Source of the DNA: Buchnera aphidicola (Neophyllaphis podocarpi)
Lineage (GTDB): Bacteria; Pseudomonadota; Gammaproteobacteria; Enterobacterales; Enterobacteriaceae
Assembly: GCF_964059055.1 (NCBI RefSeq)
Contig: NZ_OZ060386.1
Span: forward strand, 210,001-242,000
Reading direction: 5' to 3'
Length of the DNA: 32,000 bases
The position numbers were made by a program, and so were the translations under genes. The notes under the pieces are model-generated. The model was not told where the DNA came from and searched no databases. It was given only the letters and a program-made list of their open reading frames with translations. Positions 2,354 through 30,650 of the stretch are shown one piece after another. The first letter of the stretch is position 1. The number at the start of each line of letters is the position of its first letter.

Positions 2354-3078
2354 CTATTTTAAAAATTTATTTAATTTTTGATACTTTACAGCTATTCCAT
2401 AATTATAACGTAAATCTATATATACAATTTTTTTCTTATAATATATTTCTTCTTTATGTAGTATAGGCCAAATTATTATTAAATTTTTTAATTTTTCAAT
2501 TTTGTCTTTATTACCTATTTCTATTATAATGTTTGAGTTAGTTATTAATTTGCATGAGTATCTTGTTTTCATGTAAAATTCTTTTATCTTTATTCTTTTA
2601 TCTTCTAATATTTTATTAATTTTTTTATATATTACTAATATTTCAGTTTGCTTATTTTTTAATCCATATATTTTAGGAAGGTTATTTTTTATTTGATATA
2701 TTTTAGGTATATAAAATATTTTAGCATTTACATCTATCATGTAGATATCATTCCAATAAGCAATAGGTTCATATAAAATCAGATTTATTTTTAAATTATT
2801 GTCTATTGTTTTTATTTTAATATTTTTTATCCACTCAATATTTTTTAATTTATTTTTTATATAATCTAAGTTATTTTCTATATTTATACTATAATTTATT
2901 AATTTTTCTGTAGTTTTTTTAGTTTCATATTGATTTATATATTTATTATTGTTTAAAACAATTATTTCTGATATTTTATATTTAAAGTATTTATCACATT
3001 TTATATATATTTCTTTAAATAAAAAAAATATTAATATTATTAATATAGATATCAAAAAAATTTTTTTTTAATTATCAT
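2354..3078 (-). CDS. ftsQ: Cell division protein FtsQ, interrupted near the 5' end: ATG at 3078 is out of frame with the body across an A9 tract; the uninterrupted frame is 2354..3055 (TTG start)
   Basis: The 233-aa ORF starts inside the TM helix. Its C-terminal part KIKEFYMKTRYSCKLITNSNIIIEIGNKD...IVYIDLRYNYGIAVKY aligns to E. coli FtsQ [29 protein letters not shown]...ISYVDLRYDSGAAVGW. It sits between ddlB and ftsA as in E. coli. Upstream, ATG ATA ATT A9 T7 GA would read MIIKKKIFLISIL with one extra A. Confidence 0.85.
3061..3069 (-). other. A9 homopolymer (T9 on plus strand) separating the ftsQ ATG from its reading frame; candidate slippage site
   Basis: Counted directly. Plus strand 3051-3070 is atcaaaaaaa ttttttttta. 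The ATG frame ends at TGA 3054..3052. The body frame has TAA at 3070..3068. Confidence 0.8.
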
Positions 3079-3096
3079 TTTATTTTTACTATATTT

Positions 3097-4017
3097 TCAC
3101 TTATTTAAGTTAGCTGATGTTAAAATTTTTAAAATTAATTCTTTAAATTCTATACCTGCTTTCTTTGCAGCTAAAGGGAATAGACTATCATTTGTCATTC
3201 CCGGAATAGTATTTGCTTCTAATAACCATATTTTATTATTATTATCTATTATCAAGTCTATTCTACCAAATCCTGTACAACCTAAAATATTCCAGGCTTT
3301 TTTTACTATTTTTTTTATTTTTTTTTCTTTTTTTATATCTAAACCACAAGGACATATATATTTTGTATTTTTTGATATGTATTTTGCGCTATAATCATAA
3401 AATAAATTTCTTGAATATATTTTAATTATAGGTAAAATATTATTTTCTAAGATTGATACGGTATATTCTTTGCCTTCAATAAAAGGTTCAATGATTATAG
3501 ATTTATATTTACTTAAAGCTTTTTTAATTTTGTTTTTTATTTCTTTACTATCTTTAACTATTATTGAACCTATACTAGAACCTTCATTATTAGGTTTTAT
3601 AAATAATTTTGTCCCTAACTTTATTTTTATTTTTTCTATATCTAATTTTTTTTTTGTAATATTATTTATATGTATGTACTTTGATACAGGTAGATTATAT
3701 CCTTTCCATATTAATTTAGTTCTTATTTTGTCCATTGCTATTGCAGATGACATTACTCCGCTTCCTGTATAAGGAATTTTTAAAGATTCTAAAATAGATT
3801 GAATTATTCCGTCTTCTCCATTTTTTCCATGTAATGCTATAAAAACTTTTGTGAATCCCTCATTTTTTAGTTTAAATATTGGAAAATTAATTGTATCTAT
3901 TGCATAAGCATTAATTCCTAATTTTATTAGTTCTTTTAGAACATTTTTTCCAGACAGTAAAGATATATTTCTTTCTAATGAATTACCTCCTAATAATACA
4001 GCAATCTTTTCACTCAT
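3097..4017 (-). CDS. ddlB: D-alanine--D-alanine ligase
   Basis: The ORF track gives 3097..4035 (MLEVIKMSEK...). I prefer the second ATG at 4017: MSEKIAVLLGG aligns with the E. coli DdlB N-terminus MTDKIAVLLGG, giving 306 aa as in E. coli, and AGAGGT lies 8 nt upstream. Other matches are HGKNGEDG, YTGSGVMSSAIAMDK and LLEANTIPGMT. It ends in TGA. Confidence 0.95.
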   Translation of the reverse strand: MSEKIAVLLGGNSLERNISLLSGKNVLKELIKLGINAYAIDTINFPIFKLKNEGFTKVFIALHGKNGEDGIIQSILESLKIPYTGSGVMSSAIAMDKIRTKLIWKGYNLPVSKYIHINNITKKKLDIEKIKIKLGTKLFIKPNNEGSSIGSIIVKDSKEIKNKIKKALSKYKSIIIEPFIEGKEYTVSILENNILPIIKIYSRNLFYDYSAKYISKNTKYICPCGLDIKKEKKIKKIVKKAWNILGCTGFGRIDLIIDNNNKIWLLEANTIPGMTNDSLFPLAAKKAGIEFKELILKILTSANLNK

Positions 4018-4036
4018 TTTTATTACCTCTAGCATT

Positions 4037-5464
4037 CTAACTTTTTGATTTATATTTATAAAATAGTTTTAGGATTTTATTTAAATCACCAGCTCCTTGT
4101 GTGATAATAACACTATTATTACATAATATTTTTTTTAAATAGATAATTATTTCATTGTTATTATTAATAGCAATAGATTTATTAATATTTTTTTTATTTA
4201 TTGCTTTACTTAGTATTTTATTATTTATTTTATTTATTTTTTTTTCTCCTGATGAAAATATATTTAAAATTAATATTTTATCAGCTTTTAGCAATTCTTT
4301 AACAAATTGATTAAAAAGATTTTTAGTTCTTGTATATCTATGAGGTTGAAATATCATTATAATTTTTCTATTAGGCCATCCATTTTTAACGGTAATTATA
4401 TTTTCTCTAATAGCTGTAGGATGATGCCCGTAATCATCAATGATGATTACATTGAAAAATTTTTTGTTAATGTTTTGAAAAATAAATTTACCTATAATTT
4501 CAAATCTTCTTTTTGTACCTTTATAGTTTTTTAATGCTTTAATTATATATTTATCTTTGATTTTTTCTTGTTTTGATATTGCTATAGCGGCAGTTGCATT
4601 TAATGCATTATGTTTACCTGGTAAATTTACAGATACATTCATCGTTTTATCATTTTTAATTGATAATTTAAAAAATCCTATTTGTTTTTTTTGTTTGTAA
4701 CTAATTATTCTTAAATCTGCATTCTTATTAAATCCATAAGTAATAATTTTAGATTTTATTTTTTTTATTTTATTTTGAATTATTTTATTGTCTAAACATG
4801 CTATAACATATCCATCTTTAGGAATATTATTTGCAAATTTTATAAAAGTTTCTTGTAATTTGTTAAAATTTCCTTTGTATTCATGTAAGTGATCTGTATC
4901 TATGTTTGTTATAACTATATTTTTTGGTTTTAAATTTAATAATGATGCATCACTTTCGTCTGCTTCGACTATTATATTAGAATCTTTTCCTGTTGCAGAA
5001 TACTTTCCTATTAATTTTACTAATCCTCCATTAACTAAATTAGGTCTAAATCCCCCTTCGTAATATATACTAAAAATCATACTAGTAGTAGTAGTTTTAC
5101 CATGTGTTCCTGTTATTGCTATACTATTACTTACCATTTTTATAATTTCTGATAAAATTTCTGATCTATGTAATATTTTAATACCATATTTTTTTGCTGT
5201 GGTTAGCTCTATATTATTTTTTTTTATAGCACTAGAAAATACAACAATATCTGGATTATTAATATTTAATTTAGAGTGAATATTATATATTTTTACTCCT
5301 AGTTTTTTTAGATATCTTGTTATTTTGCTTTGTTTTATATCTGATCCACTAATTTTGTATTTTTTTTCTGCTAATATAGTTGCGATACTTCCCATCCCAG
5401 TACCACCAATTCCTATAAAATGAATTTTTTTAGTATTCTTTAATAATAATTTTTTTGTTTTCAT
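4037..5464 (-). CDS. murC: UDP-N-acetylmuramate--L-alanine ligase
   Basis: 475 aa. Matches to E. coli MurC: IHFIGIGGTGMGSIA, ITGTHGKTTTTSM, EADESDASLL, DDYGHHPT and QPHRYTRT. Confidence 0.97.
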   Translation of the reverse strand: MKTKKLLLKNTKKIHFIGIGGTGMGSIATILAEKKYKISGSDIKQSKITRYLKKLGVKIYNIHSKLNINNPDIVVFSSAIKKNNIELTTAKKYGIKILHRSEILSEIIKMVSNSIAITGTHGKTTTTSMIFSIYYEGGFRPNLVNGGLVKLIGKYSATGKDSNIIVEADESDASLLNLKPKNIVITNIDTDHLHEYKGNFNKLQETFIKFANNIPKDGYVIACLDNKIIQNKIKKIKSKIITYGFNKNADLRIISYKQKKQIGFFKLSIKNDKTMNVSVNLPGKHNALNATAAIAISKQEKIKDKYIIKALKNYKGTKRRFEIIGKFIFQNINKKFFNVIIIDDYGHHPTAIRENIITVKNGWPNRKIIMIFQPHRYTRTKNLFNQFVKELLKADKILILNIFSSGEKKINKINNKILSKAINKKNINKSIAINNNNEIIIYLKKILCNNSVIITQGAGDLNKILKLFYKYKSKS

Positions 5465-5473
5465 GAAAATATT

Positions 5474-6528
5474 TTATAAATCATTAATTAAATTAAAAAT
5501 TTTTTTAGTAGAATTTTTGAAATCAATTTTTTGTGATTTACATATCATTCTTACAATTTCTTTTCTATTCCAAATTTTTAAAATTTCTAAAATTTTCTTT
5601 ACAGATAAGTTTTTTTCGCTTATAATTTTTGCAATTCCCATTTTTTTTAAAATTAATGCATTAAAATATTGTTGTTTATCTTTATGATTATAAGGTATAA
5701 GTATTGATGGTAAATTTATACTTAATATTTCACTTACTGTTAATGCTCCTGATCTACCAATAATCATATCTGTCCATTCATAAGCTTCATCTATGTTTTT
5801 TATAAAATTAACTATTTGATGTTGAAATAATTTATTTTTTAAGTATATTTTTTTTATTCTAAAAAAATCTTTATTTCCAGTTTGATGTAATATTTTGATA
5901 TTGTTTTTAAGTTTTTTTGCTACTTCAACTATAACATTATTTAGTATAATAGATCCTTGACTTCCTCCTAATATCAATATTCGAATTTTTCCTTTTCTTT
6001 TTTGAAATCTTTTAAGAGGTTTATTTATATTTAATATTTCTTCTCTTATCGGATTTCCCACAATATAAGCATTGTTTAAAGTATTAGAAAAAGCTTGCAT
6101 ATTTATATTGGAAATTTTTGATAATATTTTGTTAGTTATTCCTGCCACTGTATTTTGTTCATGTACTAACAAGGGAATTTTACATATTTTTGCAGCTATT
6201 CCTACTGGTCCAGATACATAACCACCCATAACTAATATTACTTTAGGTGAAATTTTTTTAATTATTTTTATAGATTGATAACAAGCATATAAAATTTTTA
6301 TAGGAGATAATATCAATGTTTTGATTTTTTTTCCTACAATACCTTCAATATTTATAAAAAATATTTTTATTCCATATTTCGGAATCATTTTAGATTCTAT
6401 GCCATTTTTTGTGCCAATCCATATTACTTGCCAATTATTTTTTTTGAAATATTTTGCTAAGGTAATACCGGGAAATACATGTCCTCCAGAACCTCCTGCC
6501 GCTATTAAAATTTTTTTTTATTCATCAT
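5474..6528 (-). CDS. murG: Lipid II glycosyltransferase MurG, interrupted at codon 4-7: ATG ATG at 6528 is out of frame with the body across an A9 tract; the ORF-track ORF (5474..6388) lacks the N-terminal G-loop
   Basis: The body frame is open from 6517 and reads ILIAAGGSGGHVFPGITLAKYFKKNNWQVIWIGTKNGIESKMIPKYGIKI. This aligns to E. coli MurG [22 protein letters not shown]...LVPKHGIEI. The rest matches HEQN, GGSQG, GRSGALTVSE and HKDKQQYFNA. AGAAGG lies 8 nt upstream of ATG 6528. Confidence 0.93.
6511..6519 (-). other. A9 homopolymer (T9 on plus strand) separating the murG ATG from its reading frame; candidate slippage site
   Basis: Plus strand 6501-6530 is gctattaaaa ttttttttta ttcatcatta. 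The ATG frame gives MMNKKKF then TAA (6507..6505). The body frame has TAA at 6520..6518. Confidence 0.8.
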
Positions 6529-6550
6529 TATAGACCTTCTTAATTTTTAT

Positions 6551-7693
6551 TTATATAAAATAATTTTTTATTTTGTTTTCAAAATCTATTCTTAATAGCC
6601 AAAATATAGCAATTGATGTTATAATAAGGCTAGAACCTCCATAACTAATCAAAGGTAATGTCAATCCTTTAGTTGGTAAAATTCCAGTTACTACTCCTAT
6701 ATTAATAATAGTTTGTACATATAACCAAATGCTAATTGATATTGCAAGAAATCCTGAGAAAATTTCTTGGTTTTTTAATGCAATTTTTCCTATATACATA
6801 GCATTTATTGCTATTTTTATAATTATTGATAAAACAAATAAAGTGCCTACATAACCAAGTTCTTCAGCTATAATAGAATAAATGAAATCAGTGTTAGATT
6901 CTGGCAGATATTCTAGTTTTTGTATAGAGTTACCTAAACCTACACCAAATATATGCCCTCTACCAAAAGCTATAAAAGATTGTATAATTTGGTAACCATT
7001 TCCAAAGGGATCTTTCCATGGATCTATAAATGATATAATTCTTTTAATTCTATATGGAGTGTAAATAATTGTAGGTACTATTGTAATAATACATAATACT
7101 ATCATCAATATAAAATTTTTTAATTTAAATCCTGCAAGGAATAATAATACTAAAGTAGTAGTTAATAATATAATCACAGTTCCTAAATCTGGTTGAGATA
7201 TTATTAAATATGATAATATTATTAATATGAAAATAGGTTTATAGAAATTCCATGGTGTTTTATTTATTGTTTTAATATTTTTTTTTAAATAGCTAGATAA
7301 ATAACAAAAAAGTGAAATTTTAGATATTTCAGATGGTTGAAAATTTATAAATCCTATATTTACCCATCTAGATGAACCATTGACTGAATTTCCAAGTATT
7401 GAAACAATAAATAGTAGTATAATAGATAGAATTAAAATTTTTTTACTATGATAATCCCAAAATATCATAGGTATACGTAAAAATATTAATGATAAACTTA
7501 ATGCTATACATATATATAAAAAATGTCTTTCTAGAAAAAAAAAATAATTGTTATATAAATTTTTTCCTATATTTATAGACGTAGAAAATACCATAATTAA
7601 TCCAATTACATATAAACTAATTAGTGACCATAATAAGTCATAGTTATACATATTTTTTATTTTTTTTTTATATAATTTTGTTTTTTTTGTCAT
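6551..7693 (-). CDS. ftsW: Peptidoglycan glycosyltransferase / lipid II-handling SEDS protein FtsW
   Basis: 380 aa. Matches to E. coli FtsW: QPSEISKISLFCYL, QPDLGT, NPW-type DPWKDPFGNGYQIIQSFIAFGRG, LPESNTDFIYSIIAEELGY and PTKGLTLPLISYGGSS. The start could instead be the internal ATG at 7651, which would remove the 26-nt overlap with murD. Confidence 0.95.
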   Translation of the reverse strand: MTKKTKLYKKKIKNMYNYDLLWSLISLYVIGLIMVFSTSINIGKNLYNNYFFFLERHFLYICIALSLSLIFLRIPMIFWDYHSKKILILSIILLFIVSILGNSVNGSSRWVNIGFINFQPSEISKISLFCYLSSYLKKNIKTINKTPWNFYKPIFILIILSYLIISQPDLGTVIILLTTTLVLLFLAGFKLKNFILMIVLCIITIVPTIIYTPYRIKRIISFIDPWKDPFGNGYQIIQSFIAFGRGHIFGVGLGNSIQKLEYLPESNTDFIYSIIAEELGYVGTLFVLSIIIKIAINAMYIGKIALKNQEIFSGFLAISISIWLYVQTIINIGVVTGILPTKGLTLPLISYGGSSLIITSIAIFWLLRIDFENKIKNYFI

Positions 7694-9008
7694 AAAAATT
7701 TTTTACTAACTTAATAAACATATTACCTCTATGTTTAAAATTTAAAAATTGATCTGTGCTAGCACAGGCTGGTGATAATAATACTGTGTCTCCACTTTTA
7801 ACTTGTATAAATATATCTCTCATTGCTTCTTTTAGATTTTTATATTTTTTAGTTTTTTTTGGGAGAATTTTTGCTATTTTATTTTTATCTTTTCCAAAAC
7901 AATATATTGTTATAGAATTATGTTCTAGATATTTTTTTAATTCTAAAAAATTAGTGTTTTTTCCATCTCCTCCAAGCAGTATTCTGATTTTAGATTTTGT
8001 ATTCAAATCTTTAATTGCAGCTTTAGTGCTCCCTATATTTGTTGCTTTTGAATCATTTATCCATTTTATTCCATCTTTATGACATATTAATTCAAATCTA
8101 TGTTTTAATCCTTTAAAGTTTACTAATTCTTTTTCAACTTTTTTTATTGGTATATTTAAAATATTTACTATTGCTATAGCTATCATTGCATTTATATGAT
8201 TATGTAAGTTTTTTAATTTCATTCTACTTACATTAAATAATTTTATATTTTTATTATATATCCATAATTTATTTTTATGTTTTTTTAAATAATAATCTGC
8301 ATTTTCTGAATTAAAACTAATTTTTTTACTTGTTATATTTTTATTTGGGTATGTTAATTTATCTTCTAAATTAAAAAGACATATTTCAGCATTATTATAT
8401 ATTTTATTTTTAATGTTAGAGTATTCTTGTATATTTTCATTATATCTATCCATGTGATCTCTACTTAAATTTATTATAATTGATATCTTTGTTTTTAATT
8501 TTTTAGTTGATTCGAGTTGAAAACTAGAAATTTCTAAAATTAATATATCAAAATTATCTTCTATAATATTAAGTACTGGAAATCCTATATTTCCTCCTAT
8601 TGTAACTCTATATTTTGATTTTTTTAACATGTTTAACAACATAGTAGATACAGTACTTTTTCCATTTGATCCTGTTATAGCTATAATACTTAATTTAGTT
8701 TCTCGACAGAATAACTCAATATCTCCAATAATTTCAATTCCTAATTTTTCAGCTAAGTTAAATATAGGATTTTTTAAATTTATTCCAGGGCTTACAACTA
8801 TAATATTAGCGTCTAATATCCATTTTTTATTTATTTCACCTAAATAATACTCAATATTTTTTGGTATTTTTTTTAATTCTTTATTTATATATGTTTTCTC
8901 ATCTAACACCTTTGGTATAATATTTTTTCTTAAAAAAAATTTTATACAGGACATTCCTGTTTTTCCTATCCCTATAATAACTATATTTTTATCTTTGTAA
9001 TTTTGCAT
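7668..9008 (-). CDS. murD: UDP-N-acetylmuramoylalanine--D-glutamate ligase
   Basis: 446 aa. Matches to E. coli MurD: MQNYKDKNIVIIGIGKTGMSC, GDIELFCRE, ITGSNGKSTV, ELSSFQLE, WINDSKATN and LLSPACAS.DQF.NF..RG. Confidence 0.97.
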   Translation of the reverse strand: MQNYKDKNIVIIGIGKTGMSCIKFFLRKNIIPKVLDEKTYINKELKKIPKNIEYYLGEINKKWILDANIIVVSPGINLKNPIFNLAEKLGIEIIGDIELFCRETKLSIIAITGSNGKSTVSTMLLNMLKKSKYRVTIGGNIGFPVLNIIEDNFDILILEISSFQLESTKKLKTKISIIINLSRDHMDRYNENIQEYSNIKNKIYNNAEICLFNLEDKLTYPNKNITSKKISFNSENADYYLKKHKNKLWIYNKNIKLFNVSRMKLKNLHNHINAMIAIAIVNILNIPIKKVEKELVNFKGLKHRFELICHKDGIKWINDSKATNIGSTKAAIKDLNTKSKIRILLGGDGKNTNFLELKKYLEHNSITIYCFGKDKNKIAKILPKKTKKYKNLKEAMRDIFIQVKSGDTVLLSPACASTDQFLNFKHRGNMFIKLVKNFYDKKNKII

Positions 9009-9019
9009 TATTTAAATAC

Positions 9020-10090
9020 TCATAATGATATAATTCCAATTAAAAATAGTAATAAAGATATAATCCAAAGTCTAACTGTAATTTTGGATTCTTTGTATCC
9101 TTTAATTTCATAGTGATGGTGTATAGGAGCCATATTAAAAATACGTATTTTAAATATTTTAAAACAAATAACTTGTATTATTACTGAAATAGTTTCTATT
9201 ACCAAAACTCCGCCGATAATTATTAATAATATTTCTTGGTGTAGTAATAAAGCAATGATTCCTATAGTTCCACCTAAAGATAATGATCCTATATCTCCCA
9301 TAAATATTTCTGCTGGATAAGTATTAAACCACAAAAAAACTATTCCTGACCCTATAAGTGATGTACAAAATATAATCAATTCACCTGCATTACATATATA
9401 TTGTAAATTGAAATAATTTGATAAATCAATGTTCCCGCTAATAAAGGATATTATAGCAAATATTGTAGCAATTAGAATAACAGGTATTATTGCTAAACCA
9501 TCTAAACCATCTGTGATATTAACACTATTACTAGTTCCTACAATTACAAAATACATTATAATTAAATAAATCCAATTAATTTTAAAATTTATATTTTTTA
9601 TGAATGGAATAGGTAATTCATGTTTTTGATTTATACAATCGATAAATACAAAATATATTATTATAAGAGATATTATTGATAAAAATAAATATTTATATTT
9701 TGCAGTTATACCTTTGGAATTTTTTTTTGTTATTTTATAATAATCATCTATTAATCCAATTATTCCATAACTTATTAATATATATAAAATATACCATATA
9801 TAATTATTTAATAAATCTGACCAAATAATTACAGATATAATAGTTGAAATTATTATAGTTATTCCTCCCATAGTAGGAGTATTTTTTTTGTTATAATGAG
9901 ATGATGGTCCTTCATATCTTATTACTTGATTAAATTGTAAATTACTAAATAATTTTATTATATGTTTTGTTATATACACAGAAAATATTATTGAAGTTAT
10001 AAAACTACATATAGATCTGAAAATTATATAAGTAACAAATTTGTATTTTATATCTAAACAATCTAAATTTTCTATTATTCACATTAACAT
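9020..10090 (-). CDS. mraY: Phospho-N-acetylmuramoyl-pentapeptide transferase MraY with an in-frame TGA at codon 4 (10081..10079); the ORF-track ORF 9020..9979 (GTG) lacks the first TM helix
   Basis: Hand translation from ATG 10090 gives M L M * IIENLDCLDIKYKFVTYIIFRSICSFITSIIFSVYITKHIIKLFSNLQFNQVIRYEGP. This aligns without gaps to E. coli [62 protein letters not shown]. The rest matches TPTMGG, DDY.K, NLTDGLDGLA, MGD.GSL.LGG and APIHHHYE. There is no ATG, GTG or TTG between the TGA and 9979. Confidence 0.92.
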
Positions 10091-11442
10091 GTTATTTTCT
10101 CTTGTATTTTACCTAGAATTTTTTCCATTTTTGAATTACGAGAACCTTTTATTAAAACTATAATATTTTTTTTATGCATGATTAATTTTTTTACTTTATT
10201 AACAAGTTCCTCATGTGTATAAAAATGTTGTCCTTGTTTATTTTGTTTACTGATATGTTGACTTAATTTTCCTATACTAAATATTCTATTAATTTTAGAA
10301 TTTTTGATTTTATTTCCTATAAATTTATGATAATAAGTTGATTTATCACCTAATTCATGCATATCTCCTGTTATTATTATTTTATATCCATTAATTGAAT
10401 TTAAAAAATTTATTGCTGCATTCATAGATCCTATATTCGCATTATAAGTATCGTCAATAAGATATTTTTTTTTGCTTAATTTAATTATTTTTAGTCTTCC
10501 TGTTATTTGTTTTAATTTTGTGATTGTATTTTTTATTTTTTTTAATGGTAAATTCATACAACTAACAATAGCTGTTGCTGCAAGTATATTAGATATATTA
10601 TGGGTTCCCAGTAAAGGAACTTTTATAGGTATCTTATTTTTTCTTGTATTTAAATTGAATTTTAGTCCTTTTGTACTTATATAAATATTATCTGCAAAAA
10701 AATCAGCTTTTCTTTTTATGGAAAAACATAAGACTTTTTTGTCTTTTATTGATTTATTCCATATTTTCCATTTATTACTGTCAGAATTTATTATAATAAT
10801 TCCTTTTTCATCTAAATTTGAAAATATTTCCTGTTTTGCTTTAGCTACTCCATTTATTGATTTAAAACCTTTTAAATGAGCATAATGTATATTATTTATT
10901 AAAACTATGTTTGGTTTTATAATTTTATTAATATATTTTATTTCTCCTGGATTATTAGCTCCTACTTCAATTACTGCATATTTATGATGTTCTTTTAATT
11001 TTAGTAACGTTATAGATACTCCAATCTTATTATTTAAATTTTTTGGTGTAAAAATTGTTTTTCCTTTTTTTTTTAATATTTTTGCAGTTATTTCTTTTAC
11101 TGAAGTTTTTCCAGATGATCCTGTTAATGCTATTAATGTAACATTTGTTGTTTTTCGTAACCATGAAGCTATTTCTTCTAATGCTTTTGATGTGTTTGTT
11201 ACTAATATTTGAGGTATATTATATTGTACTTCCTTTTCTATTAATAATCCTTGAGCTCCCTTAATTATTGCTTCATTGATAAAATGGTGAGCATTAAAAT
11301 TATTACCTACTAAGGCTATAAACAAAGATCCTAGTGTTATTTTTTTGCTATTTATTATAATATTATCAATTTCAGTATATATATTATTAATTATTTTACC
11401 CGATGTGATTTTTGCTATTTTATTTAAGGATATTTTTATCAT
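10084..11442 (-). CDS. murF: UDP-N-acetylmuramoyl-tripeptide--D-alanyl-D-alanine ligase
   Basis: 452 aa, the same length as E. coli MurF. Matches: LTGSSGKTSVKE, NLNN.IGV, DDTYNAN, KGSR and the C-terminus ...ITC (E. coli ...GTC). Confidence 0.97.
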   Translation of the reverse strand: MIKISLNKIAKITSGKIINNIYTEIDNIIINSKKITLGSLFIALVGNNFNAHHFINEAIIKGAQGLLIEKEVQYNIPQILVTNTSKALEEIASWLRKTTNVTLIALTGSSGKTSVKEITAKILKKKGKTIFTPKNLNNKIGVSITLLKLKEHHKYAVIEVGANNPGEIKYINKIIKPNIVLINNIHYAHLKGFKSINGVAKAKQEIFSNLDEKGIIIINSDSNKWKIWNKSIKDKKVLCFSIKRKADFFADNIYISTKGLKFNLNTRKNKIPIKVPLLGTHNISNILAATAIVSCMNLPLKKIKNTITKLKQITGRLKIIKLSKKKYLIDDTYNANIGSMNAAINFLNSINGYKIIITGDMHELGDKSTYYHKFIGNKIKNSKINRIFSIGKLSQHISKQNKQGQHFYTHEELVNKVKKLIMHKKNIIVLIKGSRNSKMEKILGKIQEKITC

Positions 11443-12925
11443 ATAATTTTTTATTTAATATTTTTAATACGGTTTCTTCATCTGAATATTTTATTTTATT
11501 TTTTCCTATCATTTGGTAATTTTCACTTCCTTTTCCTGCTATTAAGATGATATCATTCATACTTGAATTATTTACAGCAACTTTTATAGCCTTTTTCCTA
11601 TCAGGAATTACATAAGCTTTTTTTGGATTTGTAAAACCATCCAAGATATCTTTTATTATTTTATTTGGGTTTTCTGTTCTTGGATTATCATTTGTTATAA
11701 ATACTTTATTTGATAGTTTTTCTGCTATTTTTCCCATTATAGGTCTTTTTGTTTTATCTCTATCTCCGCCGCAACCAAAAATACATGTTAGTTTTTTTTT
11801 TGAATATATTGAATTTATTATTTTTATTACTTTATTTAATGCATCTGGAGTATGAGCATAATCAATTATTATTTTAGGTTTATTTGATACATAAATTTGT
11901 TGCATTCGTCCTATTATAGGTTTTATTTTTTCTACTGTTAATATAATAGAAGATAAAGAATATCCCAAAGATAATAAAGCAGCCATAGATAACAATATAT
12001 TAACTACATTAAAATTTCCTATTAAATTAACTGATATATCCCCATTTCCCCAGCTTGAATTAAAATCAATGATACTTCTAGTATTCTCATGCTTAACTTT
12101 TTTTGCATATATCCATCTTTCTCCATATTTACATTTTAAATTTGTAGTAGCAATATAAATTTTATTTCTTGATTTTATTTTTTTAAACCAATTCATTCCT
12201 ATTTTAGTGCTTATATTTATAATTGGATTTTCAATTTTATGATCAGAAAATAGTTTCCATTTTGTTTTTTCATATTTTTTCATATTTTTATGATAGTCTA
12301 AATGATCTCTACTTATATTTGTAAATATTCCTACTTTAAATGGTATGCTAGATACTCTATATTGATCCAATGCATGTGATGATATTTCTATAGCAACTGT
12401 GTTAACTCTATTTTTTAGAAAAAAATTTAAATAAGACTGTATATCAATAGCTGAATCTGTTGTATTAATAGTTTCTATTAATTTTCCGTATAATCCATTT
12501 CCTAATGTTCCTATAACAGCACTTTTATCTCCTAACAAATTAATCCATTGTGAAATTAATTGAGTTACACTTGTTTTACCATTGGTTCCTGTTACACCTA
12601 TTATATTTAATCTATTTGATGGATTGTTATAAAAATTTCCTGCTATCTTTGATATTTTTTTTCTTATATTTTTTATATAAATAATAGGTATTTTGTTTAT
12701 ATATTTTATTTTTTTATTTTTTACTTTAGACCATGAAATTACAGCATTAGCACCTTTATTTATTGCTTCTTTTATAAATTTATTCGCATCTATTTTATTA
12801 CCTTTTATTGCTATAAATAAATCTTTTTTTTTTATATTTTTACTATTTATTTTTATATTTCTTATAAGAATTTTTCTTAATTGATAATTATTTATTCCTA
12901 ATAATTTATTTAATTTTATATTCAT
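11420..12925 (-). CDS. murE: UDP-N-acetylmuramoyl-L-alanyl-D-glutamate--2,6-diaminopimelate ligase
   Basis: 501 aa. Matches to E. coli MurE: GVTGTNGKTS, SRDHLDYH, DYAHTPDAL, GCGGDRDK.KRP and the DNPR meso-DAP specificity motif (TNDNPRTE). It overlaps the murF start by 23 nt. Confidence 0.97.
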   Translation of the reverse strand: MNIKLNKLLGINNYQLRKILIRNIKINSKNIKKKDLFIAIKGNKIDANKFIKEAINKGANAVISWSKVKNKKIKYINKIPIIYIKNIRKKISKIAGNFYNNPSNRLNIIGVTGTNGKTSVTQLISQWINLLGDKSAVIGTLGNGLYGKLIETINTTDSAIDIQSYLNFFLKNRVNTVAIEISSHALDQYRVSSIPFKVGIFTNISRDHLDYHKNMKKYEKTKWKLFSDHKIENPIINISTKIGMNWFKKIKSRNKIYIATTNLKCKYGERWIYAKKVKHENTRSIIDFNSSWGNGDISVNLIGNFNVVNILLSMAALLSLGYSLSSIILTVEKIKPIIGRMQQIYVSNKPKIIIDYAHTPDALNKVIKIINSIYSKKKLTCIFGCGGDRDKTKRPIMGKIAEKLSNKVFITNDNPRTENPNKIIKDILDGFTNPKKAYVIPDRKKAIKVAVNNSSMNDIILIAGKGSENYQMIGKNKIKYSDEETVLKILNKKLYDKNILK

Positions 12926-12954
12926 ATAATAATTTAAAATTTAAGATAAGATTT

Positions 12955-14654
12955 TTAGTTGTCTGGTTTTGTATTAGTTAATTTTAATATATTACTCATA
13001 ATTTCGCTAAATATGGGAGCTGAAACTAAACCTCCATAATATTTTCCTTGGCTAGGTTCATTTATCATAATTACTAATGCAAATTTAGGGTTTCTTGATG
13101 GAGCTATACCAGCTGTATATGCTATATATTTATTTATATATTTTTTGTTTGTTCCAACTTTTTTTACTGTACCAGTTTTTACTGCTACATGATAACCTTT
13201 TACTGCAGCTTTTACCCCGCTTCCTCCGGTAGTAGTCACGCTTTCCATCATTCTTATAACTTTTTTTATTATTTCTTTTGGAAAAATTTGTTTTTCATTT
13301 TTTTTGTTTTTTAATTTCAAGATTGATACAGGACGAAAAATGCCATAGCTTCCTATAGTAGAATATAATTGTGCTACTTGTAATGGAGTTACCATTAATC
13401 CATATCCAAAAGAAAATGTTGCTTTTTCTAGCTCACTAGGATGAACATGTTTATATAATACTCCTTTTCTTTCTCCTACTAATCCTATGTTAGTTAATTT
13501 ACCTAATCCAAATTCATAATATGTATTTTTAAGTAATATTGAAGGCATAGATAAAGATATTCTAGATACTCCAACATTACTTGATTTTTTTATTATGTCT
13601 TTAGCATTTAATTGTTCATATGTATTTAAATCTTTAATTTTATACCCTTGTAATTTAAAAGGCATTGTATTTAAAATAGAATTTTCTTTAATTAAACCTA
13701 TTTGTAGCGCTTTCATTATTACTATTGGTTTAACTATAGAACCTGGTTCAAATAAATCAGTAATTGCTGTATCTCTTATAGTTGAAATGTTTTTAATATT
13801 ACTGACATTATTAGGGTTAAATGAAGGGGAATTTACTATAGATAGAATTTCTCCTGTTTTTATATCTATTAAAATTGCTGTACCTGATTTTGCTTTATTT
13901 TTTTCTACTGCTTTATTTAATATTTCATATGTAATATTTTGAAATTTTTTATCTATACTTAGTATTATATCTATAGATTTAGTTTTGCTTTTTACTAATA
14001 TGTTTTCTATTATATTGCCTTTTCCATCTTTTATGACTTTTCTTATTCCATATTTTCCTTCTAGTAATTTATTAAAACTTTTTTCTACTCCTTCTATACC
14101 TTTTCCATCAATATCTGTAAATCCTACAAGTTGAGCGGCTACTTTACCTGATGGATAATATCTACGATATTCTTCTATAGAATGAATACCTGGTATCCTT
14201 AATTTTTCAATATAATCAGTAATTTCTAATGGTATTTGTCTTGCTATGTATATAAATCTTTTTGTTTTATTTTTTTGAATTTTTTTTATTATTGAGTTAA
14301 TATCTATTGATAGAATATCTGCTAGTGCATTCCATCTTATATCTTTTTTGATAATATTTTTTTTTTCTATGTTTTTAGGATCTACCCATATTCCTTTTAC
14401 TGGTACACTAATAGCTAAAGGTTTTCCGTTTCTATCACTTATTGTACCTCTTATTACCTTTGTATTTTTAAATCTTAAAAATCTAGCATTTCCTTCTTTT
14501 ATTAATTTATTAGTATCAATAATTTGTAAGAATGTTATTCTTATTACAATTAACAATATGAGAAACATAATTAAATAATTTATAAAATTGAAGCGCCATT
14601 TTGTATATATAAAAAATTTTTTTTTCTGTATATTTTTTCTTTTAAGTTATTCAT
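12955..14654 (-). CDS. ftsI: Division-specific transpeptidase FtsI (PBP3), interrupted at codons 10-13: ATG at 14654 is out of frame with the body across an A9 tract; the ORF-track ORF is 12955..14568
   Basis: The body frame is open from 14646 and reads ...KKKFFIYTKWRFNFINYLIMFLILLIVIRITFLQII, aligning to E. coli FtsI ...ANFISWRFALLCGCILLALAFLLGRVAWLQVI. Downstream matches are RRYYPSG, GIEGVEKSF, the active-site SxxK as PGSIVKP, SSNVG, KTGT and YYGG.VSAP.F. Confidence 0.93.
14617..14625 (-). other. A9 homopolymer (T9 on plus strand) separating the ftsI ATG from its reading frame; candidate slippage site
   Basis: Plus strand 14611-14630 is aaaaaatttt tttttctgta. The ATG frame gives MNNLKEKIYRKKNFLYIQNGASIL then TAA (14582..14580). 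The body frame has TAA at 14649..14647. Confidence 0.8.
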
Positions 14655-14699: not shown

Positions 14700-14981
14700 T
14701 TAATTCATTAATTTCATTTGTAATTTTAAAATTGAAATTTGTTTTATTTTTATACTTGTATTAAATGTATTTAATTCTATACTTAAGTTTCTTAATTCAA
14801 TATTTAATTTTCTATTTTCTAAGATTAATTTTTCTTTTTTTTGTACTAATGAATGAGTTTGGTATATTATTATTACAACTAAAATAGCAGATAAAATTAC
14901 CGAAATTAATAATAAAATTTTCGCTAGATGATTATTATATAAGTCATATATAATAAATTTTACTAAATCTTTATTTTTCAT
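14700..14981 (-). CDS. ftsL: Cell division protein FtsL
   Basis: 93 aa, single TM plus coiled coil. LILENRKLNIELRNLSIE and ILKLQMK match E. coli FtsL LVLERDALDIEWRNLILE and EKLQMQ. It sits between rsmH and ftsI. Confidence 0.9.
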   Translation of the reverse strand: MKNKDLVKFIIYDLYNNHLAKILLLISVILSAILVVIIIYQTHSLVQKKEKLILENRKLNIELRNLSIELNTFNTSIKIKQISILKLQMKLMN

Positions 14982-14982
14982 A

Positions 14983-15921
14983 TTATTTGTTTAATTCAGC
15001 TACTCTTAATATTGCGCTGCGTGCTCGTATATTATTTTGAATTTCATTTTTACTTGGAAATATTCTCCCAATAATTTTTAATATTTTAGGATTTATTTTA
15101 TCTAATTGTATTTTTGTTAGAGGAATATCTTTAGGTAAATTAATTTGTTTGCTATTATTAATCATAAAATGTTTAATAATTCTATCTTCTAAAGAATGAA
15201 AACTAATAGTTAATATTCTTCCTTTATTTTTTAAAATTTTTAAAGAATCTTTTAAAGCAATCTTTATATCTGACAACTCATTATTAATAAAAATTCTAAT
15301 AGCCTGAAAGCTTCTTGTAGCAGGATTTTTATTCTGATATTTTTTAGGAGTAGATTTTTTGATTATTTCAACTAGTTCTTTTGTATATTTGATTGGAGAA
15401 ATTTTATTTTTTTTAACAATAGCTTTTGCTATTTTTTTTGCATATCTTTCTTCTCCTAATTTTTTAAGAACTTGACTTATTTCTTTTTCGCTACTTTTTT
15501 GTAACCATTCTGCTGCTGTAATACCTTTTGTGTTATTCATTCTCATATCTAAATAACTATTTCTTAAAAATGAAAAACCTCTGTTTTTATCTGCAATTTG
15601 CATTGAAGACATACCAAGATCTAATATTATACCATCTATTTTTTTTATAATATTAAATTTTATTGCATATTTTAATATCATTGCGAATGATCCATGTATT
15701 ACTTTTATTCGGTGATCTTTAATTCTTTTTGCAATTTCAATTGCTTTAGGATCTTTATCTATAACAAATATTCTTCCATATTCATTTAATTTATTTAAAA
15801 TTTTATTAGTGTGACCGCCGCAACCGAAAGTTCCGTCTATATAAATTCCATTTTTTTTTATTTTTAAATTTTCTATAGTTTCATTTAACAATACTGTTAT
15901 ATGTTGTGATTTATTTTTCAT
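14983..15921 (-). CDS. rsmH: 16S rRNA (cytosine1402-N4)-methyltransferase RsmH (MraW)
   Basis: 312 aa (E. coli 313). Matches: HITVLLNE, YIDGTFGCGGH, DLGMSS.Q, GFSF, ISFHSLEDR and RARSAILR. Confidence 0.96.
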   Translation of the reverse strand: MKNKSQHITVLLNETIENLKIKKNGIYIDGTFGCGGHTNKILNKLNEYGRIFVIDKDPKAIEIAKRIKDHRIKVIHGSFAMILKYAIKFNIIKKIDGIILDLGMSSMQIADKNRGFSFLRNSYLDMRMNNTKGITAAEWLQKSSEKEISQVLKKLGEERYAKKIAKAIVKKNKISPIKYTKELVEIIKKSTPKKYQNKNPATRSFQAIRIFINNELSDIKIALKDSLKILKNKGRILTISFHSLEDRIIKHFMINNSKQINLPKDIPLTKIQLDKINPKILKIIGRIFPSKNEIQNNIRARSAILRVAELNK

Positions 15922-15951
15922 TTAGCTATAATTTATTTTTTGATTTATACT

Positions 15952-16428
15952 TTATCCGCGTGTTATTCCTATAATTCCTGAACGTACTATTTCAATTACA
16001 TCTGATATTTCTCTAATAATTTTTAAAAAAGCATCTAATTTATTACTATTACCAGAAAGTTGAACAGTGTAAATATTAGATGTTACATCTACTATATTAC
16101 CTCTAAAAATTTCTGTGTTACTTTTTATTTCTTCTCTGATGTTTTCATTTGTTTTAATTTTTACTAACATTATTTCTCTTTCTACATATTCTCCTTGGCT
16201 AAAGTTTTGTATTCTTAAAACGTCAATTAGTTTATGCAATTGTTTTTCTATTTGTTCTAATACTTGAATTTTACCTACAGTTAATATAGTTATTCTTGAC
16301 ATAGTAGGATCTTCTGTTGGAGCTACAGTCATGCTTTCTATATTATATCCTCTTTGTGAGAATAGTCCTATAACTCTAGATAATGCTCCTGATTCGTTTT
16401 CTAGAAGTATTGATAAAACTCTCTTCAT
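15952..16428 (-). CDS. ilvH: Acetolactate synthase III small (regulatory) subunit
   Basis: 158 aa. [42 protein letters not shown] is nearly identical to the E. coli IlvH N-terminus. AAGGGGA lies upstream of the ATG. Confidence 0.97.
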
Positions 16429-26147: not shown

Positions 26148-26888
26148 ATGAATTATATTTATAACTCCAAAAAAAAATTTGATTTTATAAAAAATAATAT
26201 TAATCATATTGCAATTATTATGGATGGCAATAGAAGATGGGCTATTAATAAGAATAAATCTTATATTGATGGTCATAAAGCTGGTGTTAAAGCTGTAAAA
26301 AAAATTATTAAATATTCTATTATTTGTAATTTAAAAGTGTTGACTTTGTATGCTTTTAGTAGTGAAAATTTAAATAGATCTAAACAAGAAGTCGAATCTT
26401 TAATAAATTTGTTTTTAGTGGTTTTAAATTCTGATTTAGATATTTTATATAAAAATAATATAAAATTAAGAATCATTGGTGATATTAGTTTGTTTGGTTC
26501 TTTCTTTAAAAATAGTATTTTACATGCACATGAATTAACAAAACTTAATACTGGATTATTACTTAATATTGCAATTAATTATGGAGGAAGATGGGATATT
26601 ATTCAAGGAATAAAAAAACTTATATCTAAAATTAAGTATAAAAAAATATCCTCAGAAAGTATTAATGAAAACTATTTATCTAAATTTTTATGTATTGATA
26701 GCAAAATTCCAGTTGATTTAGTTATTAGAACTGGAGGAGAATATAGAATTAGTAATTTTATGTTATGGCAAATTGCATATTCTGAGTTGTATTTTACAAA
26801 TACATTATGGCCTGATTTTAATGAACATAGTTTTCAACTAGCTATTAAAGAATTTTTAAAACGTGATAGACGTTTTGGTGGTAGTTAA
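26148..26888 (+). CDS. uppS: Undecaprenyl diphosphate synthase
   Basis: 246 aa. Matches to E. coli UppS: HIAIIMDGN.RWA, GH.AG, LTLYAFSSEN.NR, NYGGRWDI, DLVIRTGGE.RISNF.LWQ.AY.E.YF and RFGG. Confidence 0.96.
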   Translation: MNYIYNSKKKFDFIKNNINHIAIIMDGNRRWAINKNKSYIDGHKAGVKAVKKIIKYSIICNLKVLTLYAFSSENLNRSKQEVESLINLFLVVLNSDLDILYKNNIKLRIIGDISLFGSFFKNSILHAHELTKLNTGLLLNIAINYGGRWDIIQGIKKLISKIKYKKISSESINENYLSKFLCIDSKIPVDLVIRTGGEYRISNFMLWQIAYSELYFTNTLWPDFNEHSFQLAIKEFLKRDRRFGGS

Positions 26889-26996
26889 ATAATTATTATA
26901 ATTTTAATTACTAAAATTAAAATTTTAACAATATTTGATAAAAATATTATTTTTAATGTATGATAAGTTCATTATTTTTAAAAATAAAATTATTAT

Positions 26997-29408: not shown

Positions 29409-29445
29409 CTATAAAAAAATTTTAAAATTTTTTAGGAAAAATATT

Positions 29446-29892
29446 TTGAATACTAATATTAATAAATTAACATTTAAAGAAATTTTAAATTTGTTACCTC
29501 ATAGATATCCTTTTTTATTAGTAGATAAAATAATAAAGATAGTAAAGTATAAGTATATTAAAACTATAAAAAATGTTTCATTTAATGAGCCTTTTTTTAA
29601 TGGGCATTTTCCTGGTGATCCTATTTTTCCCGGTGTATTATTAATAGAATCTATGGCGCAAACAGCAGGAATTTTGGCTGTTGCTAGTATGTCTAAGTTA
29701 GAACATAAAGATTTATATCATTTAGTTGGCGTTGATAAAGCTCGTTTTAAAAATCCTGTATTTCCAGGAGATCAAATAACAACAGAGGTATATTACAAAA
29801 AATATAAAAGAAAAATTATACTTTTTAAATCAATATCTAAAGTAAATGAAAAAATAATTTGTAAAGCAAATATTATGTGCATGAAAAAATAA
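29446..29892 (+). CDS. fabZ: 3-hydroxyacyl-ACP dehydratase FabZ (TTG start)
   Basis: 148 aa. ILNLLPHRYPFLLVDKI, NEPFFNGHFPG.PIFPGVLLIESMAQ and VD.ARFK.PV.PGDQ match E. coli FabZ. TTG at 29446 is the only plausible start, as there is no in-frame ATG until mid-protein. AGGA lies 8 nt upstream. Confidence 0.95.
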   Translation: MNTNINKLTFKEILNLLPHRYPFLLVDKIIKIVKYKYIKTIKNVSFNEPFFNGHFPGDPIFPGVLLIESMAQTAGILAVASMSKLEHKDLYHLVGVDKARFKNPVFPGDQITTEVYYKKYKRKIILFKSISKVNEKIICKANIMCMKK

Positions 29893-30050
29893 TCTAAAAT
29901 TTATAATATTTTTTATTAATACATTCAGCATATTTGTTATTAAATTTAATTTAAAACACGTTATTTTATATAGTTTTATTTCAATTTAAATATTTTTAAA
30001 AGTTTTAAATTTTAATAAAAAATTTTTTTATTTTTTATAGGTATAATATA

Positions 30051-30650
30051 ATGTTTAAATTAATTTATAAAAATTATAATTTAATTGCAGGTGTAGATGA
30101 AGTTGGTTGTGGCGCATTAGCAGGACCAGTTGTTGCCGCTGCTGTAATTTTAAACGAAAAATTTAAAATACATGGATTAAAAGATTCTAAAAAAATTTCT
30201 ATCAAAAATCGTTTATATATTAGTAAAGAAATTAAAAAAAAATCTTTAGATTGGCATATAGGAGTTGCTAATGCTCAAGAAGTAGATAAATTTAACATTT
30301 TAAACGCTAGAATGATAGCTATGAAAAGAGCTATTTTAGGTCTTAACTTAAAACCTAGTTATATATTTATTGATGGTAATAAATCTCCAAATATTTCTAT
30401 TCCTATTCATTGCGTTGTTAATGGTGATAATATTATCAAAGAGATTAGCGCAGCTTCTATTATAGCTAAAGTTATACGTGATAGTAAATTAAATAAAATT
30501 CATTCATATTTTCCTGAATATAATTTTAATAAAAACAAAGGTTACCCAACTAAAGATCATATATTAGCTATTCGTAAGTTTGGTGTAACTAATTTACATC
30601 GTTTAAGTTTTTCTCCTATGTCTAGTTTTATACACATTGATCACAAATAA
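30051..30650 (+). CDS. rnhB: Ribonuclease HII
   Basis: 199 aa (E. coli 198). Matches: IAGVDEVGCGALAGPVVAAAVIL, GL.DSKK.S, DGN, ISAASI.AKV.RD and KGYPT..H. Confidence 0.96.
   Translation: MFKLIYKNYNLIAGVDEVGCGALAGPVVAAAVILNEKFKIHGLKDSKKISIKNRLYISKEIKKKSLDWHIGVANAQEVDKFNILNARMIAMKRAILGLNLKPSYIFIDGNKSPNISIPIHCVVNGDNIIKEISAASIIAKVIRDSKLNKIHSYFPEYNFNKNKGYPTKDHILAIRKFGVTNLHRLSFSPMSSFIHIDHK

Follow-up and report, generated by a model that had tools for sequence, protein, structure and literature searches.

Three division and envelope genes of the dcw cluster in Buchnera aphidicola (Neophyllaphis podocarpi), ftsQ, murG, and ftsI, lose their reading frame within a few codons of the start, each at an A9 tract that runs directly into a stretch of T. 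The question is whether such genes are wrongly sequenced, are dead, or are still expressed as full-length proteins despite the broken frame. We analyzed a 32,000-nucleotide stretch (the window) of the 559,180-bp genome, which has ~22% GC (78% A+T), and compared it with two other Neophyllaphis Buchnera lineages, L001 (CP135042.1, 99.5% identical) and L002 (CP135039.1, 95.8% identical). Two further genomes, L085 and L086, which share 83% identity with each other, belong to another, distant Buchnera clade. dN/dS ratios were computed between the window and L002, with a binomial test against neutrality. The features concerned are listed in Table 1.

Table 1. Positions of the genes, tracts, and start region discussed in the text, in window coordinates
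Feature	Position	Strand	Remarks
ftsQ	2354..3078	-	Ancestral ATG 3078-3076; frame past the tract open for 233 codons from TTG 3055
ftsQ A9 tract, codons 4-6	3061..3069	-	Followed by T7 at 3054-3060
murG	5474..6528	-	ATG ATG start at 6528-6523; Shine-Dalgarno AAGAAGG upstream at 6541-6535
murG A9 tract, codons 4-6	6511..6519	-	Followed by T4; frame-0 stop TAA at 6507-6505
ftsW A10 tract, codons 9-12	7660..7669	-	In frame; control, an unbroken 5'-proximal tract
mraY start, ATG TTA ATG TGA	10079..10090	-	In-frame TGA at codon 4
murE A10 tract, codons 31-34	12824..12833	-	In frame in the window; strain-variable
ftsI	12955..14654	-	ATG at 14654-14652; catalytic motifs SIVK, SSN, and KTG intact
ftsI A9 tract, codons 10-13	14617..14625	-	Followed by T6 at 14611-14616

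The sequence confirms that the A9T7 of ftsQ, the A9T4 of murG, and the A9T6 of ftsI are each one base short. The start of ftsQ (ATG ATA ATT A9 T7 GA) encodes MIIKKKFF and a stop, that of murG (ATG ATG AAT A9 TTTTAA) encodes MMNKKKF and a stop, and that of ftsI (ATG...AGA A9 T6) leads into a 24-amino-acid peptide. With one base added, the products read MIIKKKIFLISIL... (241 amino acids [aa]), MMNKKKILIAAGGSGGHVFP... (351 aa), and ...RKKKFFIYTKWRF... (566 aa), respectively. According to the original prediction, the correction was always one A and the site always within the first 12 codons; an A does restore the frames, but so does one T added to the adjoining T-run in every case, and the codon limit holds for ftsQ and murG and is missed by one codon in ftsI. 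The predicted origin of the tracts, in N-terminal tails rich in Lys (AAA) and the Phe/Ile-rich segments behind them, is correct. Downstream, 233 (ftsQ), 345 (murG), and 553 (ftsI) codons are open, and the restored N-termini match in-frame relatives on both flanks of the tracts (MNSKKIIIIAGG, ...KEKRKKKIIYINWRF, and, in L002, MIIKKKHFFLIS). The G-loop of MurG (GGSGGH) is encoded directly past the A9 tract, and the Shine-Dalgarno sequence ahead of the upstream murG ATG is conserved across lineages. The depositor proteins bridge the shift at all three sites, under an annotation policy set out for this genome in bioRxiv 10.1101/2022.08.28.505559. The depositor FtsQ (CAL4320934.1, 241 aa) is exactly the +1-base product, compared with 233 aa in RefSeq; MurG has 350 aa in the depositor model versus 345 aa from an ATT start in the PGAP/RefSeq model; and FtsI has 566 aa, with the shift bridged via the T-run, versus 537 aa in RefSeq.

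The base missing from each of these poly(A)/poly(T) runs is a real deficit and has been inherited. The three lineages (window, L001, and L002) share the murG A9T4, and none of them has ftsI in frame: its tract is A9T6 in the window and in L001 and A9T8 in L002, with equal total length. For these two genes the out-of-frame state is thus conserved across strains, the point that the original prediction had proposed to check. It is not for ftsQ, which is in frame in L002 (A9-CA-T9). In L001 the ftsQ tract is A10T9, one base short after loss of the interrupting C, and the window tract is four bases short, in the same phase as that of L001. The three lineages differ by 11 indels, every one within an A/T run, and most tracts of at least 9 nt, in-frame ones included, are unchanged in length over this divergence. 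Exceptions include murE, where L001 has A9 and hence a frameshift (PGAP models 464 aa there versus 501), and the ftsW tract, which is 3 nt shorter and interrupted in L002.

The dN/dS ratios of murG (0.17, P = 1e-9 against neutrality) and ftsI (0.13, P = 2e-16) fall within the range of intact neighbors (0.05 to 0.29). Judged from these sequence comparisons, murG and ftsI are still functional genes that acquired the shift before the three lineages split; being under purifying selection despite a shared frameshift, they are therefore still expressed via some bypass. ftsQ has the same pattern, but its constraint appears relaxed and its loss may be under way: its dN/dS against L002 is 0.58, indistinguishable from neutral (P = 0.19), and the distant L085 and L086 lack the gene. 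A fourth 5'-proximal lesion, the TGA in mraY, lies outside any homopolymer and is kept in all three lineages. The affected codon 4 is Trp in Escherichia coli and in another Buchnera, both annotations give a MraY of 352 aa from the ATA directly after the TGA, and the gene is under strong purifying selection (dN/dS = 0.18 versus L002). A general recoding of UGA as Trp was considered for this codon but rejected; translation table 11 leaves every other open reading frame (ORF) of the window intact.

The window contains 29 A/T runs of at least 9 nt, of which 28 are coding, with 3 out of frame and 25 in frame, in line with the "well over 20" anticipated. Eight are A10/T10 runs, all in frame, and 10-mers are therefore called correctly; two of the A10 runs that had been listed were misplaced by 4 and 10 nt and lie at 11792-11801 and 12824-12833. 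By relative gene position, the three out-of-frame tracts are the three lowest of the 28 (P = 1/3276 = 3e-4), and a location within the first 12 codons was found for 3/3 out-of-frame tracts versus 3/25 in-frame tracts (Fisher P = 0.006). The 5' clustering noticed in the original prediction is thus significant in this window (P = 0.0003 to 0.006), but it is no general rule. Part of it is explained by the base rate, as 6 of the 28 tracts fall in the first 3% of the gene. When both clades are pooled the enrichment is modest (P about 0.01 to 0.02), and the distant clade alone has none (P = 0.29). There, A10 frameshifts in murE (at ~0.34 of gene length) and murF (~0.53) are conserved at 83% identity, and murC is broken at ~0.20 of gene length. 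These mid-gene cases also speak against the idea that frameshifts are tolerated only at 5' ends, whereas the need for some bypass holds for murG and ftsI, with purifying selection and the shift in all lineages.

We infer that RNA polymerase slips on the A9, or on the adjoining T-run, and that the one base added in a minority of messages would permit synthesis of the full-length protein; this is probably the main route. The same protein would result from an unassisted -1 slip of the ribosome on A_AAA_AAA, which may add to the output. A point against slippage is tract length, since nine A residues are close to the minimum for which efficient slipping is reported. The 5' siting would have two reasons: long A-runs are concentrated at 5' ends, and, as we infer, a break there may yield only a harmless peptide of 7 to 24 aa, often with a restart codon near. 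For the whole account, comprising inherited deficits, production of full-length MurG and FtsI by RNA polymerase slippage, and this explanation of the siting, we estimate a probability of about 0.7. Bacterial RNA polymerase is known to slip on runs of 9 A/T (PMC5009743), and in frameshifted Buchnera and Blochmannia genes slippage gives full-length transcripts, about 30%, as summarized in PMC3017870 (citing Tamas 2008 and Wernegreen 2010).

The bacterium is itself an AT-rich, reduced-genome endosymbiont from a group with documented poly(A) frameshift rescue. The frameshifts of Tamas et al. (2008, PNAS) and Wernegreen et al. (2010, MBE), as described in PMC3017870 and bioRxiv 10.1101/2022.08.28.505559, likewise involve a one-base indel in an A/T run of at least 9 nt, in AT-rich insect endosymbionts and in genes without other damage. 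By the same descriptions, the slippage-rescued genes resemble ours in that the shift is conserved between related strains and the genes remain under purifying selection and are annotated as functional; slippage was shown experimentally there, whereas the present cases are known from sequence. The present tracts also differ in that none extends past codon 13 and a T-run follows every one, and ftsQ here looks relaxed rather than maintained.

Indels in Blochmannia (Williams and Wernegreen 2013, PMC3622351) occur only in homopolymers, as here, and frameshifting indels survive where damage is small or where they are paired within 20 bp and net 3 nt. The ftsQ difference between the window and L001 (A+1, T+2) fits this paired pattern, and the 3'-terminal indels that L002 shows in ftsL and ftsQ resemble Blochmannia ones. 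The bias described in that study is toward 3' ends, together with compensation, and a 5'-end class is not mentioned in its text as searched.

Two other systems invite comparison. All three sites have A_AAA_AAA in the 0-frame register, like programmed -1 ribosomal frameshifting sites (dnaX and IS elements, A_AAA_AAG/A; PMC5009743), and a -1 slip yields the same protein as a +1-A transcript. Unlike those sites, they have no suitably placed upstream Shine-Dalgarno-like stimulator and no second functional product, and no downstream stimulatory hairpin or pseudoknot was found, as the 71 nt past each tract fold no better than shuffles (z = -0.02, +0.09, and +1.59). Phase-variable (contingency) genes of pathogens also have their frame set by a homopolymer close to the 5' end, and the murE and ftsQ tracts do vary in length among close strains. 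In contrast to contingency loci, these are essential housekeeping genes of a clonal intracellular symbiont, and murG and ftsI are fixed at the "off" length in all three lineages yet under selection, with no on/off switching.

The alternative that survives best requires no slippage. The mini-ORF of 7 to 24 codons would be translated and ribosomes would restart nearby, at TTG 3055 in ftsQ, ATT 6511 or ATA 6505 in murG, and ATG 14568 in ftsI, giving products short of the first few residues. The RefSeq models start exactly at such codons, and mraY, with its TGA followed by ATA and no homopolymer, has the same layout and has kept its purifying selection. Restart is plausible for ftsQ, where the mini-ORF stop TGA (3054-3052) overlaps TTG (3055-3053) in TTGA, and for ftsI, where an ATG (14568-14566) lies 11 nt past the mini-ORF stop (14582-14580), and these codons count against the slippage account. 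In murG, the downstream frame offers the near-cognate codons ATT (6511-6509) and ATA (6505-6503), the latter overlapped by the stop (TAATA), but ATT and ATA are very weak initiators in E. coli, and at 78% A+T such codons arise near any site by chance. The next in-frame murG ATG is at 6388, and starting there would lose the G-loop. An FtsI beginning at M30 would lack the cytoplasmic tail, part of the membrane helix, and the conserved WRF motif. Between tract and ATG, all three lineages keep the correct frame free of stops. Moreover, reinitiation cannot rescue the mid-gene murE and murF frameshifts of L085 and L086, which are conserved nevertheless. Overall, we regard this reading as possible but unlikely.

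It is considerably more doubtful that the out-of-frame A9 tracts are selected attenuators, actively maintained to hold division and envelope proteins low. The out-of-frame state of murG and ftsI persists over about 4% divergence, an independent poly(A) frameshift (A11) is present near the 5' end of ftsI in L085, and the ftsQ change between the window and L001 nets 3 nt and keeps the phase; selection was also argued to maintain such frameshifts in Blochmannia (Wernegreen 2010, as cited in PMC3017870). However, most in-frame tracts of at least 9 nt are equally length-stable, so the persistence of A9 is the null expectation and needs no selection, which leaves the suggested role as an expression dampener unsupported. 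A net change of 3 nt has a 1-in-3 chance, L002 has ftsQ in frame, and the murE tract switches between A10 and A9 in strains that are nearly identical. A regulatory element beside the tracts was looked for by folding the downstream sequence, and none was seen. Given the small effective population size of Buchnera, fixation of mildly harmful lesions is expected.

A reading of the genes as incipient pseudogenes, inactive and simply not yet further damaged, is very improbable, even though envelope gene loss is known in Buchnera lineages and the neutral-like dN/dS of ftsQ and its absence from L085 and L086 would suit it. It would also agree with the occurrence of all four lesions (ftsQ, murG, ftsI, and mraY) in 12 dcw genes and of none in 17 other window genes (hand count; hypergeometric P about 0.02). 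Against it, murG, ftsI, and mraY have been under strong purifying selection since the lesion arose, catalytic motifs are intact, and frames of 233 to 553 codons are open although about 9% of random codons are stops here. For murG and ftsI, whose ratios of 0.17 and 0.13 do not fit neutral evolution, it is effectively refuted.

Sequencing or assembly miscalls are scarcely credible, as the original prediction had suspected. Confusion of A9 with A10 is a well-known type of error, and the murE and ftsQ strain differences do sit in tracts, but error is rejected because several genomes agree on tract lengths: murG and ftsI show an identical A9 in three genomes, which by their accession series (CAL.../559,180 bp and CP1350xx) appear to stem from two or more submissions. 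In addition, reassembly by Logan of the reads SRR29340286 and SRR29340287 reproduces every tract in the CP135042.1 and CP135039.1 records with zero gap columns, A10 runs elsewhere are in frame, and the L001 ftsQ lesion is a lost interrupting C and no length miscall.

A further idea, which we hold to be rather improbable, is that extreme-5' poly(A) frameshifts might be preferentially retained in Buchnera, as they would leave a tiny peptide instead of a truncated, possibly dominant-negative membrane protein and would allow both slippage and restart. If so, the Lys tails at the N-termini of bitopic division proteins (FtsI, FtsQ, and FtsW) would be a recurrent, possibly tunable weak point. The independent 5' A11 lesions in ftsI of L085 and ftsW of L086 are consistent with preferential 5' retention.

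Poly(A) frameshifts presumably bypassed by polymerase slippage form a well-documented class, and the depositors annotated all three genes accordingly. The possible 5' positional bias is the only new angle, a weak one that the mid-gene cases in the L085/L086 clade contradict. The main relevance is to annotation, given the disparity between RefSeq and depositor models of FtsQ, MurG, and FtsI. The ftsQ, murG, and ftsI frameshifts are no errors, and the genes, ftsQ with less certainty, are not dead; the lesions add three or four further conserved cases to the known class of phenotypically corrected frameshifts.

The dcw cluster lies on the minus strand of the window (G+C, ~22%) in the order ftsZ, ftsA, ftsQ, ddl, murC, murG, ftsW, murD, mraY, murF, murE, ftsI, ftsL, rsmH, and reading that strand bears out the original prediction that ftsQ, murG, and ftsI are each broken at a 5' A9 tract. 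With one base inserted, FtsQ becomes a 241-residue protein with a membrane segment at its N terminus, MurG a 351-residue protein that starts MMNKKKILIAAGGSGGHVFP and includes the nucleotide-binding G-loop, and FtsI a 566-residue protein that has its membrane helix and the conserved WRF motif, with SxxK, SxN, and KTG all intact. The correction had been described as always one additional A; an extra A does restore the frames, but an extra T in the adjoining T-run mends all three genes equally well and is therefore another possible correction.

Features of the window and of comparison loci (window coordinates unless a locus is named)
Feature	Position	Strand	Description
ftsQ tract	3061-3069	minus	ATG ATA ATT A9 T7 GA; MIIKKKFF, stop
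murG tract	6511-6519	minus	ATG ATG AAT A9 TTTTAA; MMNKKKF, stop
ftsI tract	14617-14625	minus	ATG AAT AAC TTA AAA GAA AAA ATA TAC AGA A9 T6; 24-residue peptide
A10 tract	11792-11801		corrected position
murE A10 tract	12824-12833		codons 31-34; corrected position
mraY start	10079-10090	minus	ATG TTA ATG TGA ATA...; TGA in frame
L002 ftsL deletion	14700-14716		2 nt, near 3' end; 80 aa vs 93 aa
L002 ftsQ insertion	2366-2393		2 nt, near 3' end
Spacers, uppS-bamA-fabZ-rnhB-dnaE and rsmH-ilvH	26888-26997, 29408-29446, 29892-30051, 15921-15952		very short
murE A10 frameshift	L085 4131, L086 4117		~0.34 of gene length
murF A10 frameshift	L085 5828, L086 5814		~0.53 of gene length
ddl-ftsA spacer	L085 13499-13846, L086 13483-13844		~350 bp; ftsQ missing

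Two other Neophyllaphis Buchnera genomes, L001 (CP135042.1; 99.5% identity to the window over 16.5 kb) and L002 (CP135039.1; 95.8% identity), share the murG tract A9T4, which is thus present in three of three lineages. For ftsI, the window and L001 both have A9T6, and L002 has A9T8 of equal total length; this shared tract phase places murG and ftsI out of frame in all three genomes. Logan reassemblies (SRR29340286 and SRR29340287) match the L001 and L002 records with zero mismatches and zero gaps, so that every tract length is reproduced. The murE A10 tract is A9 in L001, with an identical reassembly, and murE is consequently frameshifted there (464 aa in PGAP versus 501), which makes it the fourth gene of the operon with a tract lesion, and a very recent one. 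The window and L002 are both labeled Neophyllaphis podocarpi, whereas the window is much nearer to L001, labeled N. varicolor, which suggests host misidentification or a cryptic host species.

Nei-Gojobori dN/dS between the window and L002, in the frames downstream of the lesions, was 0.17 for murG, 0.13 for ftsI, and 0.18 for mraY, compared with 0.05 to 0.29 for intact neighbors, with a synonymous excess in each (P = 1e-9, 2e-16, and 1e-8, respectively). Because the lesions are common to both genomes, purifying selection has acted on the three genes with the lesions in place. Judged from these substitution patterns, murG, ftsI, and mraY must be expressed despite their lesions. The in-frame TGA at the mraY start stands where E. 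coli (MLVW) and a distant Buchnera, L086 (MLIW), have Trp, and it is kept in 3/3 Neophyllaphis lineages. Both annotations start MraY at the ATA directly after it; UGA read-through by tRNA-Trp, AUA restart, or a non-canonical start could be involved.

For ftsQ, dN/dS was 0.58 (6 synonymous and 17 nonsynonymous changes; P = 0.19 against neutrality). The gene is in frame in L002, as A9-CA-T9 (MIIKKKHFFLIS); the tract is A10T9 in L001, where the interrupting C is lost, and A9T7 in the window, another 3 nt shorter. Since two distant Buchnera loci, L085 (OZ060383.1) and L086 (Logan, SRR17658160), are missing ftsQ, the gene may be dispensable and decaying in the Neophyllaphis lineage. Blochmannia indels are biased to 3' ends and show compensatory patterns (PMC3622351), and both the net 3-nt change of the ftsQ tract and the 3' indels of L002 ftsL and ftsQ resemble this. 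These frameshifting 3' indels are tolerated, matching the bias reported for Blochmannia.

Transcriptional slippage on poly(A) would be the most likely expression route of the frameshifted genes. Bacterial RNA polymerase slips on 9-nt A or T runs (PMC5009743), and frameshifted poly(A) genes of Buchnera and Blochmannia yield a mixed mRNA pool with ~30% full-length transcripts; frameshifts of this type can be conserved from one species to another (PMC3017870, which cites Tamas 2008 and Wernegreen 2010). Reinitiation after the mini-ORF is a real alternative for ftsQ, in which stop and start overlap (TTGA), and for ftsI, in which an ATG lies 11 nt past the stop; it is weaker for murG, in which only an ATT or ATA start keeps the essential G-loop and a conserved Shine-Dalgarno sequence precedes the upstream ATG. 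The ribosomal equivalent would be a -1 shift. All three sites present A_AAA_AAA in the matching register, and an unassisted slip is possible there; no RNA structure was found downstream of any of the three tracts (z = -0.02, +0.09, and +1.59), so programmed -1 frameshifting is not indicated. Nothing supports actively maintained expression dampeners, as had been proposed: most tracts of either frame status are constant in length over this divergence, and the length-changing ones (murE A10/A9 and ftsQ) switched state between close strains. Sequencing error is effectively excluded by the three-lineage agreement, the reassemblies, and eight in-frame 10-mers within the window, which indicate that long runs are not generally under-called.

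A/T runs of at least 9 nt number 29 in the window, 28 of them coding (25 in frame and 3 out of frame); two A10 positions given in the original prediction were slightly off. When the 28 are ranked by relative position from the gene start, the broken tracts take the first three places (0.009, 0.012, and 0.017; P = 1/3276), and 3/3 out-of-frame tracts versus 3/25 in-frame tracts lie within the first 12 codons (Fisher P = 0.006). In-frame 5' tracts are found in ftsW (A10, codon 9), dapD (A9, codon 8), and uppS (A9, codon 8). A general 5' pile-up of tracts explains part of the lesion pattern, the first 3% of gene length holding 6/28 window tracts. The corresponding counts are 7/25 in L085 and 4/25 in L086, against a uniform expectation of <1, and this concentration reflects Lys-rich N termini in these three AT-rich genomes.

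The idea that frameshifts are tolerated only at 5' ends fails in the distant clade, where L085 and L086 (83% identity) both have murE and murF frameshifted at mid-gene A10 tracts; these frameshifts are old, conserved, and of a kind known from Blochmannia. Further lesions occur in murC (at ~0.20; L086) and at 5' A11 tracts of ftsI (L085) and ftsW (L086). Annotated L085 genes of 1697, 1523, and 1376 nt for 565, 507, and 458 aa indicate that its depositor bridged frameshifts as well. A pooled test compared nine independent events with 68 tracts that are in frame: the opening 3% of gene length contained 5/9 of the events and 12/68 of the tracts (Fisher P = 0.02; Mann-Whitney P = 0.013). No positional bias was seen when the distant clade was taken by itself (P = 0.29). 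The 5' enrichment of out-of-frame tracts is modest at most, and a survival filter could be its cause, in that such breaks would give peptides that are short and harmless and would have restart codons close by.

Elsewhere, the very short spacers of the gene orders uppS-bamA-fabZ-rnhB-dnaE and rsmH-ilvH show that cdsA/rseP, skp/lpxD, lpxA/lpxB, and mraZ are absent; bamA is kept and is itself extremely AT-rich (GC, ~17%).

All three frameshifts were already bridged in the depositor's records of FtsQ (CAL4320934.1; 241 aa, identical to the +1-base product), MurG (CAL4320991.1; 350 aa), and FtsI (CAL4321112.1; 566 aa, corrected within the T-run, ...YRKKNFFIY...). RefSeq models are shorter (FtsQ, 233 aa from TTG; MurG, 345 aa from ATT; FtsI, 537 aa from ATG). 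Repaired MurG as a query matched one Buchnera protein at 99% identity and all others at ≤56%; by exact protein look-up, the window encodes the proteins of Buchnera aphidicola (Neophyllaphis podocarpi), with a genome of 559,180 bp. This genome seems to come from an aphid symbiosis survey including Neophyllaphidinae Buchnera, in which genes frameshifted at A/T homopolymers were given functional annotations on the precedent of Tamas et al. 2008 (bioRxiv 10.1101/2022.08.28.505559). In Buchnera, slippage-tolerated poly(A) frameshifts form a known class that has already been annotated, and the window lesions are a further example of it, of low novelty; the points that keep some interest are the unusual start of mraY and the possibility that 5' position acts as a filter.
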